A stretch of DNA of 64,000 nucleotides from a virus (taxonomy: Duplodnaviria > Heunggongvirae > Uroviricota > Caudoviricetes): positions 171,001-235,000 of the IMG/VR virus record IMGVR_UViG_3300021387_000463; one strand, 5' to 3'. The position numbers were made by a program, and so were the translations under genes. The stretch's first letter is position 1; each line of letters starts with the position of its first letter. The notes below the pieces were generated by a model. That model saw only the letters and a list, made by a program, of their open reading frames with translations, had not been told where the DNA came from and searched no databases. Below are positions 48,281-60,890 of this stretch, one piece after another.

Positions 48281-48460
48281 ATGAGTAGCGCACAGAAACG
48301 TCTGAATAAGGCGATTAAGAACAACCGAGTGGTAGCAATCCCCTCGAAGAAGCGTAAGGACTATATGGTTGACGAGAATGGTCAGCAGATGTATGACCCC
48401 AAGACCAATGAGCCAATGGTCAAGGAAACGCAACTTTATAAGATTAAGAAAATGAACTAA
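48281..48460 (+). CDS. Small basic protein (59 aa)
   Basis: MSSAQKRLNKAIKNNR...; own promoter; missed by the ORF track. Confidence 0.75.
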   Translation: MSSAQKRLNKAIKNNRVVAIPSKKRKDYMVDENGQQMYDPKTNEPMVKETQLYKIKKMN

Positions 48461-48655
48461 CGGCTTCCGATTTGGGGCAAAGGTGGTAAGCGATTTGCGC
48501 TGTGTATAGGTCAGGAGATAGTCCGCACCTCCACCACCCCACTGCCGTTTCTTAGGTAGGGATAAAACAAACTATAGTGAATGGGAATGTGCTACGTGCC
48601 GCTTCGTGCTTGCACCTACAAGCCAACCCAATATTGGGGAAACCCTACCTAATTT
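48460..48655 (+). ncRNA. Structured 3' trailer, two closed stem domains
   Basis: acggc/gccgt, tgggg/cccca, ggtgg/ccacc; ttaggtaggg/ccctacctaa. Confidence 0.5.
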
Positions 48656-48729
48656 TCTCAAAGGTTAAACGAAGTTAAAACACCGAAAAAATTTGGTCAG
48701 TTCAAAAAAATTTCGTACCTTTGCATCAG

Positions 48730-49502
48730 AATTAGTAACGAGGGTTGCGATACCCTCACCTAAAAAGAAAGAAATAATGGAAAGACCTCCGCCCAGTTAA
48801 AGGGCTATAGTTATGTCGTTAATGTAAAGGTTAGAATAATAAGGTTGAGGGAGTGACCTTGAAAAACCCTACAAAGAAGTTATGATTAGAGACCGACCCT
48901 AAGTAAAGAATATATTTACCGCCTCTACCCATGTCAATGTGCATGGCTTGGCAAGGTCATTCGACCAAAAACGAAAACTTTAAGCCCCCTAAACGCTTAT
49001 GTTCCGCCCCCAATCCGCACCAATATGATAGAGTGCCGATGTCATTGGGCGAGTTTATCTGCCGATTATACGCTGCCAAACTGCCAAAAGGCTGCGATTC
49101 ACGGCTGTCCGTTAGAAGCGTTAGGGACTTGTTAGAACGATGGAAGTTAAGCCAGTATAAGCCACTGCCCCCCAAAACGTGCGCACATATCTGAGGGGCG
49201 TGCCAAAAGGTTATAAATCGTTCATTTTATTAACATGATGGGGCATTTGGGACGCGACAACTAAGTGATTATAAGCCGAGCGTTGTTCACGCCACCGTCG
49301 CCCTCAAAAGATAAGTTGTGTAATCAACCCTACTCACAGCGACTATGACGTTAATCGTTTGCGGTGTTGCCATAGTATGCTACTAAAGGTGTGAGAAACA
49401 AGTGAGGTGGATTCGATGCGCCCTAAGTGGGGATGCCGAACTGCGCTGCATTAAGTTGCACTCGCCTTTGCCATCATGGACTTTGGACGTGTCCCACCTC
49501 AC
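48730..49502 (+). ncRNA. Candidate large structured ncRNA (~770 nt)
   Basis: Own promoter (48716), no credible long ORF, raised GC, many stems including 49402-49410/49494-49502; ends at a tRNA-like element. Confidence 0.65.
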
Positions 49503-49510
49503 ATTTTTAA

Positions 49511-49582
49511 GCCTCAGCTAGCTCAGTTGGTAGAGCACTACGTTTGACGTAGGGGTCGTTGGTTCGAGTCCAACAAGGGGCA
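49511..49582 (+). tRNA. Degenerate tRNA-like element (short anticodon loop, broken acceptor base)
   Basis: Canonical D arm and T arm; anticodon arm CTACG-TTTGA-CGTAG; only 5 acceptor pairs. Confidence 0.7.
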
Positions 49583-49653
49583 CAAAAATGCTCGTTTTGC
49601 GTTGTGGTAACGCTCTTTGTTTTCCATAATTTGAATTGTTAGGTTTTTAGTTA

Positions 49654-49695
49654 GATGGGGTGATGTCGTGAGACATTTCCCCATTTGTATTTTTT
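49654..49695 (+). terminator. Rho-independent terminator, GTGA loop
   Basis: atggggtgatgtc-gtga-gacatttccccat-ttgtatttttt. Confidence 0.75.
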
Positions 49696-60559: not shown

Positions 60560-60810
60560 TCAATGAGACGGAAATAAAGTAAGGTTACAAGGTAATCACA
60601 CACCTCCTTTCTGTGATAAAATGGTTTTGCAAATCTAAAGATAACCTTAAAAATTCTCAGCGGAGAATACCTTACTTTCCAAAGATATATTTGAACGATA
60701 CCAGAGGAGAACTATCCGCAAGGGTAGATGTGGACAAATGGGCATTAAGTTCGTGCTTAATGTGTCACTTCGGTGACTTCGGTGATTCAAATTCACCTCG
60801 TTCAACTAAT
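60560..60810 (+). ncRNA. Structured ncRNA with two multi-stem domains and an anti-SD-like loop
   Basis: Own promoter (60547); closing stems 60576-85/60669-78 and 60691-98/60798-805; GCAA and cUUCGg tetraloops. Confidence 0.8.
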
Positions 60811-60890
60811 TAGTAAGTAATTGTAGTAATGGCTTGTACTGCGCTCTGTTCTATAGAGCAACTTGAGCGGTCCGATTCCGTGCTTACTAA
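60811..60890 (+). tRNA. Degenerate tRNA-like element (TCT anticodon, Arg-like)
   Basis: Acceptor TAGTAAG/CTTACTA, anticodon stem GCTCT/AGAGC, T loop TCCGATT, abnormal D arm. Confidence 0.6.

Follow-up and report, generated by a model that had tools for sequence, protein, structure and literature searches.

tRNA-shaped cassettes with altered anticodon arms occupy the last position of a non-coding unit in a jumbo phage and its relatives

The window, by which we mean the whole 64,000-nt stretch of DNA that was analysed (C1:171001-235000), belongs to a 412,753-bp virus record of a jumbo phage (~413 kb). The genome contains 52 tRNA genes called by ARAGORN, a tmRNA and a GOLLD-like RNA, and an ordinary full tRNA set is encoded elsewhere in it. 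By a simple rule, 11 of the 52 tRNA genes have abnormal anticodon loops (6 nt, 8 nt, or a purine at 32/33), including those at G000 C1:22662, 110910, 122052, 137648, 139641 and 239062. A tRNA with a CUA anticodon (amber suppressor type) is present at G000 C1:134142-134227, and the genes of the window read well in code 11. Most tRNA genes of the phage have no encoded CCA, and a PolyA_pol/CCA-adding-type protein of 464 aa is phage-encoded (G000 C1:164187-165581, equal to L023:1417-2811). Searches of the phage genome for a type A RNase P RNA, for Pth and for a T4-type RNA ligase found none of these, the last search being without a positive-control match.

Far from the main tRNA cluster, amid short genes whose proteins matched no Pfam family, lies a tRNA-like element at 49511-49583. 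It is the last cassette of a predicted non-coding unit with the following parts:

48692..48723, + strand, predicted Bacteroidetes-type promoter of the unit (TTTG, 20-nt spacer, TAnnTTTG)
48777..48800, + strand, minigene 1, MERPPP(x)-stop, with an A-rich start context (12 of 12 arrays scored)
48882..48902, + strand, minigene 2, M(x)RDRP(Y/N)-stop (10 of 12 arrays; in one of them the Arg codon differs synonymously)
48999..49028, + strand, minigene 3, MFRP..-stop, a weaker candidate (window, L004 and L009)
49333..49395, + strand, hairpin cassette B (only in the arrays of the window, L003 and L009; fold z -0.3 to -2.7)
49402..49502, + strand, hairpin cassette A, the closing stem of the preliminary description (fold z -3.4 to -5.5 in four genomes)
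49511..49583, + strand, tRNA-like cassette of the 5-nt-loop type, with D arm, T arm and variable loop intact and A73 present
49584..49653, + strand, nearly invariant U-rich trailer, found in all arrays, with a small hairpin at 49599-49613
49654..49695, + strand, intrinsic terminator-like hairpin and U tail (z -4.1 for 49570-49690)

The same promoter motif precedes many neighbouring genes and most of the homologous arrays. We take the form TTTG / TAnnTTTG to be of the Bacteroidetes type, and the host is on this basis probably a Bacteroidetes-type bacterium; sample names point to a rumen origin of the phage. Upstream of the unit, a variable non-coding stretch (48460-48660) follows a 59-aa gene, and its hairpins reappear inside the array of contig L021.

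The element retains the elbow of a canonical tRNA, with G18G19 in a 4-bp D arm (49521-49536) and TTC and A58 in a 5-bp T arm (49558-49574, loop TTCGAGT), and its variable loop is 5 nt. The canonical anticodon arm has a 5-bp stem and a 7-nt loop (PMC7609411); here the arm (49538-49552) has a 5-bp stem and a 5-nt loop (49543-49547), 2 nt short, or alternatively a 4-bp stem and a 7-nt loop. The 5-bp/5-nt form is the more stable by 2.3 kcal/mol. In place of a 7-bp acceptor there are 5 bp (49511-15 with 49577-81) over a 3x2 internal loop that adjoins the T stem and results from one extra base on the 5' strand. The 3' end is A73 followed by C, and CCA is not encoded. The element starts 9 nt past the 9-bp stem that closes at 49502. 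The preliminary description, made from the sequence alone, had textbook D and T arms, the same two forms of the anticodon arm, an acceptor unpaired at its bottom and the 9-nt spacing, and all of these observations hold. The ARAGORN run that it proposed returned tRNA-Gln(TTG) with a 4-bp anticodon stem. Based on the Rfam tRNA model, the element scores 38.8 bits (gathering 29) with an E of 2e-6 in a local scan, and is therefore not a chance resemblance. An independent ENA assembly, L029, is 100% identical across 1,080 nt, so the element is not an assembly error. A recent pseudogene was rejected as well, given that the relative L004 keeps the 5-nt loop and carries a compensatory T-stem change.

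To trace its parentage, we scanned viral contigs for tRNAs that share its D-stem end, anticodon stem and variable loop, with any anticodon loop of 4-9 nt accepted. The same arm occurs in 38 other viral tRNAs (15 Val(GAC), 10 Ile(GAT), 9 Ala(TGC) and 4 others), two of which are ordinary tRNA-Ile of related jumbo phages. The loop is 7 nt in 38 of 38, and the element is therefore a Val/Ile-type arm minus a net 2 nt. The acceptor identity does not match the anticodon: it begins G1-C72, C2-G71, C3-G70, as in the phage tRNA-Thr genes. It is also unlike that of the phage's three other tRNA-Gln genes, which have a TGG start (T1-A72, G2, G3). The acceptor pattern and the Val/Ile/Ala-type arm together rule out a tRNA-Gln identity, and the UUG/Gln loop suggested in the preliminary description is, like the ARAGORN call, an artefact. 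We regard it as very improbable that the element works as an unusual decoder, either as tRNA-Gln(UUG) with a 4-bp stem or as a frameshift suppressor. The ARAGORN call has U33 and A37 in place, and natural phage tRNAs with altered loops exist (PMC10264068), but pairing of G32 with C38 would shrink the loop to 5 nt, and both the acceptor and the descent of the arm argue against decoding. A strain with the same downstream protein is without this cassette, so no essential recoding rests on it.

The upstream part of the unit is a mosaic. Codon changes in minigene 1 are synonymous (Arg AGA/CGA/CGC; Pro CCT/CCA and CCC/CCT), and its stop falls within 0-4 codons. In E. coli the RPPP motif makes ribosomes pause strongly (PMC8129111), and we consider the minigenes candidate ribosome-stalling or EF-P-sensing elements within a phage non-coding RNA. 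RPPP minigenes also stand in tandem in an otherwise unrelated contig (L020:3087-3200). Cassette A, variants of which occur in L030 and L003, consists of a 9-bp terminal helix, a 4-nt 5' bulge and a long irregular helix, followed by an A and a U-rich linker. Most hairpin cassettes end similarly, in a 6-10-bp helix followed by an A and a U- or A-rich linker, resembling an acceptor end. Cassettes A and B of the window and C to G of its relatives assort freely, and where hairpins stand in tandem there is no tRNA between them. The arrays range from 640 to 1120 nt, and cassette content and order differ among homologs. As a whole, the upstream region folds no better than shuffled sequences (z -0.68), and its 5' part is weakly structured. 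The preliminary description had treated this region as a single large RNA in need of a 3' end, and this is not what we find: the minigenes and reassorted hairpins are followed by a terminator of their own.

Other identities for the upstream region were considered and rejected. No single multi-domain fold of the GOLLD or ROOL type is conserved across the homologs, and neither RNA was detected at the locus by cmscan at E 10. The GOLLD model (RF02032) matches the genome only at G000 C1:130993-131426 (L001), a divergent GOLLD-like RNA within the tRNA cluster (73.6 bits, E 5.7e-20, under the family cut-off) that is 89 kb from the array. A genome search with the ROOL model (RF03087) gave no match, its positive control being likewise silent. 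A protein gene was rejected because frames in code 11 or 15 are short or non-conserved; indels in L004 interrupt the one of 87 aa at 48931. An HDV-like (theta) ribozyme was excluded because the hairpin cassettes are nested hairpins, not double pseudoknots, and match no Rfam ribozyme. The motifs GCCGA, GCCG and CCGCY are strand-biased in the window (49034-49440) and in the homologous arrays. Across 12 non-independent arrays GCCGA occurs 29 times in sense and 0 times in antisense orientation, with ~9.5 expected from shuffles. In cassettes A and D it may form a bulged-C helix recalling the Ro60 site of Y RNAs, which is only a lead because the tests for a Y RNA, given below, failed.

Based on searches by pattern, protein and identity, we recovered 13 distinct arrays, including that of the window. 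None was found in an annotated phage collection or in GTDB genomes, and a literature search returned no description of the array. Two pattern matches, L016 and L019, were discarded as chance, and L028 has no array nearby. All arrays share the order MERPPP minigene, variable middle, tRNA-shaped cassette, U-rich trailer and terminator hairpin. A normal 7-nt loop in homologs was what the preliminary description said would count against it. The terminal slot holds a tRNA-shaped cassette in 13 of 13 arrays, and a 5-bp stem with a 7-nt loop in 0 of 13; for contrast, 48 of the 51 other ARAGORN tRNAs of the window genome have a 7-nt loop. The occupants fall into the following types:

5-nt-loop type (window, L004): Val/Ile-type arm
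8-nt-loop type (L008, L011, L014, L022): looks Gly(GCC)-derived
13-nt-loop type (L006, L030): stem matches the phage tRNA-Thr(TGT)
expanded-arm type (L009, L012): on a Lys/Arg-like acceptor
strongly degenerate cassettes (L003, L010, L021, and a second, upstream copy in L009 and L012): acceptor stem and T-like hairpin kept

Judging from arm sequences, the parents of the types other than that of the window were probably Gly-, Thr- and Lys/Arg-like tRNAs, each with a different loop lesion. D or T loops are degenerate in four slot occupants (L003, the first copy in L009/L012, L010 and L021), and the mimics form a tandem pair in L009 and in L012. The slot is always last in the unit. The cassette directly before it is not constant (A, A', D, G or another mimic), and each cassette type is found behind more than one kind of neighbour.

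We aligned eight cassettes and examined pairing. The share of paired cells is 100% for the T stem, 97% for the D stem and 87.5% for the anticodon stem, all 5 pairs of the anticodon stem are changed on both sides, and the invariant columns are core and elbow residues. Five of the 8 cassettes lack pairing at acceptor positions 6:67 and 7:66. Covariation between types is partly inherited from the different parent tRNAs, and within-type comparisons therefore carry more weight. Between the window and L004, whose adjoining arrays are 77% identical, there are 3 differences in a 56-nt core: the first T-stem pair is changed from G-C to A-T, which is compensatory, and G57 is changed to A. The loop is identical, and the acceptor has been wholly replaced yet is mostly paired. 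Four phages with array identities of 78-89% have exactly the same 59-nt core in their 8-nt-loop cassettes; the probability of zero change in 60 nt at 12-20% divergence is 5e-4 to 2e-6 per pair. Acceptor changes in this type preserve pairing, one of them making a tandem G-A/A-G. This within-type identity may reflect recent horizontal exchange instead of long selection.

Exchange is apparent among close relatives. L030 and L033 have an exact copy of the 105-aa protein encoded downstream in the window and share its trailer, yet carry the 13-nt-loop cassette. The L030 cassette is identical at 77 of 78 nt to that of a distant phage, L006, whose copy of the 105-aa protein is only 50% identical. Thus, from the sequences, the slot appears to act like a locus with exchangeable alleles, near-identical strains swapping types. 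The cassettes also have A-U or U-A at pair 51:63 in 8 of 8 cases (15 of 52 among phage tRNAs). We rejected avoidance of EF-Tu as its explanation: the rows are non-independent and ordinary tRNAs share the pair, which leaves only a hint.

These comparisons bear on whether the cassettes are neutral debris, that is, broken tRNA genes that gather in a recombination-prone non-coding spot and are spread by exchange. The array is indeed mosaic, its cassettes move between lineages, other odd tRNAs occur in the genome, and the occupants form a spectrum from near-tRNA to barely recognisable. Drift of this kind is difficult to reconcile with lesions that are concentrated in the anticodon loop across several parents when D and T arms stay perfect, with the compensatory T-stem change and pairing-preserving acceptor changes, and with a location that is always the same, conserved minigenes lying on one side and a conserved trailer on the other. 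We consider the debris reading improbable and already weakened. Conservation through coding on the opposite strand was also rejected. The trailer is the reverse complement of a translation-start-like region, and the minus-strand frame is unconserved past about 5 codons; across the element it differs between homologs after the first few codons.

The loop geometry has been lost repeatedly and independently, at a fixed position, in cassettes that keep the cloverleaf shape and a conserved elbow and are exchanged between strains. That different, independently broken look-alikes occupy one slot suggests working mimics (decoys or cutting signals), not dead tRNA genes. The preliminary description proposed that an elbow kept while decoding is lost marks a processing signal, in the manner of the MALAT1 mascRNA, or a decoy for anticodon nucleases. 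The retention of the elbow without decoding is borne out, and as something under selection, by the 0 of 13 normal arms. The formation of a 3' end for a large RNA is not, and the loop is invariant within types and types are swapped, neither of which a generic RNase P signal needs. Of the two proposals, the decoy is at least as good a fit as the mascRNA-like signal.

Cutting could nevertheless be the sole function. The cassette would then be pure punctuation, recognised by RNase P and a 3' nuclease to give defined ends to the upstream hairpin and the trailer, and the loss of decoding would merely make the by-product harmless. This would agree with the fixed last position in 13 of 13 arrays, with an elbow that is invariant where the loop is broken in many different ways, with the acceptor stem stacked on a T-like hairpin even in degenerate occupants, and with precedents (PMC11693755, PMC1920247). 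It does not account for loop sequences that are invariant within types and show no drift, for tandem copies, or for near-identical strains that swap types. There is no tRNA between tandem upstream hairpins, and the unit ends in its own terminator about 70 nt downstream of the element. The terminator stem changes its letters with pairing kept in L006, L010 and L021, and in the trailer hairpin the stem is kept as the loops vary. In 5 of 8 cassettes the base of the acceptor has purine mismatches, which would be unhelpful for cleavage. We think it rather unlikely that punctuation is the only job.

The opposite possibility is that the cassette, cut poorly by RNase P because of its mismatched acceptor, remains part of the long RNA and serves there as a tRNA-shaped domain for docking or protection, for example for minigene-stalled ribosomes or tRNA-binding proteins. 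RNase P reads the tRNA elbow (PMC11693755), a 7-bp acceptor is a major determinant of its recognition, and it failed on Y RNAs without one (PMC4201824); the short acceptor of the window element (5 bp and an internal loop) may weaken cutting. Mismatches at the acceptor base are kept in the window, L008, L011, L014 and L022, and no CCA is encoded. However, the acceptor bases are paired in the cassettes of L004, L006, L030 and L009, and every cassette is flanked by single-stranded, U-rich leaders like those of ordinary tRNA operons. An uncut domain is, in our judgement, quite improbable.

A related arrangement in the window is informative about end formation. At 60811 the order structured RNA, tRNA-like element, trailer and terminator is repeated, as the preliminary description had noticed, and to that extent the layout recurs. 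The element itself (60811-60890) does not have the collapsed loop or the unpaired acceptor: it is tRNA-Arg(TCT)-like, with a paired acceptor, a 7-nt loop, and non-canonical bases at position 32/33 and in the T loop. Both G001 and G004 retain its TCT triplet, and in G004 the stem has changes on both sides. In two of four relatives (G002 and G003) it is absent and the upstream RNA directly meets the trailer. The element is thus optional, and therefore not a required end-forming signal. A third unit of this kind, encoded on the minus strand around C1:239100, starts with a short minigene; its tRNA (C1:239062-239158) has an 8-nt loop and is followed by a related trailer (C1:238915-238994) and terminator. 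Separately, a tRNA-shaped RNA of ~115 nt is present in three copies (window 60690-60807; G000 C1:130322-130438 and 130504-130610). It has an 8-bp acceptor, a giant D arm and a long variable arm, and is found with compensatory changes in all five related genomes.

Taken together, we favour, tentatively and at something short of an even chance, a selected non-decoding tRNA mimic that is released by host RNase P and acts as decoy or cargo in addition to punctuating the array. Its ancestor would have been an ordinary tRNA of the Val/Ile type whose anticodon loop lost a net 2 nt. The unit would be transcribed from the promoter at 48716 to the terminator, and host RNase P would cut at 49510/49511 by way of the intact elbow, freeing the upstream hairpin with the same cut. 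Trimming of the 3' end and CCA addition, possibly by the phage CCA-adding-type enzyme, would give a small stable RNA. This RNA would presumably be neither charged, because acceptor and loop identities disagree, nor used in decoding. It might then occupy a putative host tRNA-binding factor such as a tRNA-targeting defence nuclease, a toxin or a sensor; the destroyed loop may remove the feature that an anticodon nuclease reads. A role as cargo is favoured because a broken loop does not vary within its type, strains trade these loops, tandem copies exist and the unit has its own terminator. More speculatively, and somewhat unlikely as a whole, the unit could be an exchangeable library of RNA decoys against host translation surveillance. 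Stalling minigenes, motif hairpins and a terminal mimic slot would be combined in one early transcript, with every broken loop matched to its own host sensor or tRNA-targeting defence, and strains would exchange the mimics as anti-defence alleles.

Odd tRNA calls in phages are usually dismissed as pseudogenes or misannotated, as happened here with tRNA-Gln. The slot is a natural experiment in which at least four parent tRNAs independently lost their loop geometry, kept the elbow and were traded as versions. It provides a natural allele panel for asking whether non-decoding phage tRNAs serve as processing signals or as decoys in tRNA-targeting immunity, a question that dates from the T4 stable RNAs. 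The predicted transcript also carries the conserved MERPPP-stop minigene, which offers a testable link to ribosome stalling.

We compared the element and its array with known systems. Bacterial Y RNAs (YrlA, RF02553; PMC4201824) likewise mimic the tRNA elbow without decoding, and the GCCGA bulged helix upstream is reminiscent of them. The phage element has its arms in the order D then T, not permuted. A TROVE/Ro60 gene is absent from the phage genome and present once in the control, a Bacteroides genome. The YrlA model gives 17.7 bits (E 1.2, not significant) and GNCGAA is not enriched. On these four grounds we reject a Y RNA identity. GOLLD (RF02032) and ROOL (RF03087) are also phage non-coding RNAs of several hundred nt beside tRNAs (PMC12990946), whereas the array locus matches neither and has no shared overall fold.

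Phage T4 RNAC and RNAD (PMC3014915) are small phage RNAs from a tRNA region with no assigned role, and the likeness to them is by description, not by sequence match. The element differs in its setting: small early-type genes surround it, away from the main tRNA cluster, and it occupies an exchangeable slot of a unit that carries minigenes. Phage tRNAs resistant to anticodon nucleases (PMC10264068) share altered anticodon loops and the setting of a host defence that targets tRNA. They keep a 7-nt loop and replace host tRNAs, whereas the mimics lose the loop geometry and probably cannot decode. Irregular tRNA polycistrons and inactive allo-tRNAs (Mukai et al., PMC5389517) are strings of irregular tRNA-like RNAs, some of them non-translating, for which a link to toxin-antitoxin systems has been proposed (PMC5389517). 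In these RNAs the acceptor branch is 8/4 or 9/3, the variable arm is long and the loop is 7 nt (PMC5389517); the phage element has a 5-bp T stem, a 5-nt variable loop and a broken anticodon loop, and fits neither the 8/4 nor the 9/3 form.

Plant mitochondrial t-elements (PMC1920247) are degenerate cloverleafs or acceptor-like stem-loops in longer transcripts, possibly guiding RNase P and RNase Z. They flank protein-coding organelle mRNAs, whereas the phage cassettes are in a non-coding array and their loops are conserved within swappable types. The mascRNA and menRNA of MALAT1 and NEAT1 (PMC11693755) have a tRNA shape with the elbow kept and a compact loop in place of the anticodon loop, lie 3' of a longer non-coding RNA and are not expected to be charged. 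In common with these RNAs and with t-elements, the phage element combines a tRNA-like fold and elbow with a non-functional anticodon arm. It differs from mascRNA and menRNA in belonging to a bacterial virus, in its full-size D arm and normal linkers, in an upstream mosaic without a triple helix and in a cleavage that we infer, and the phage cassettes are derived from several ordinary tRNAs and are interchangeable between strains.
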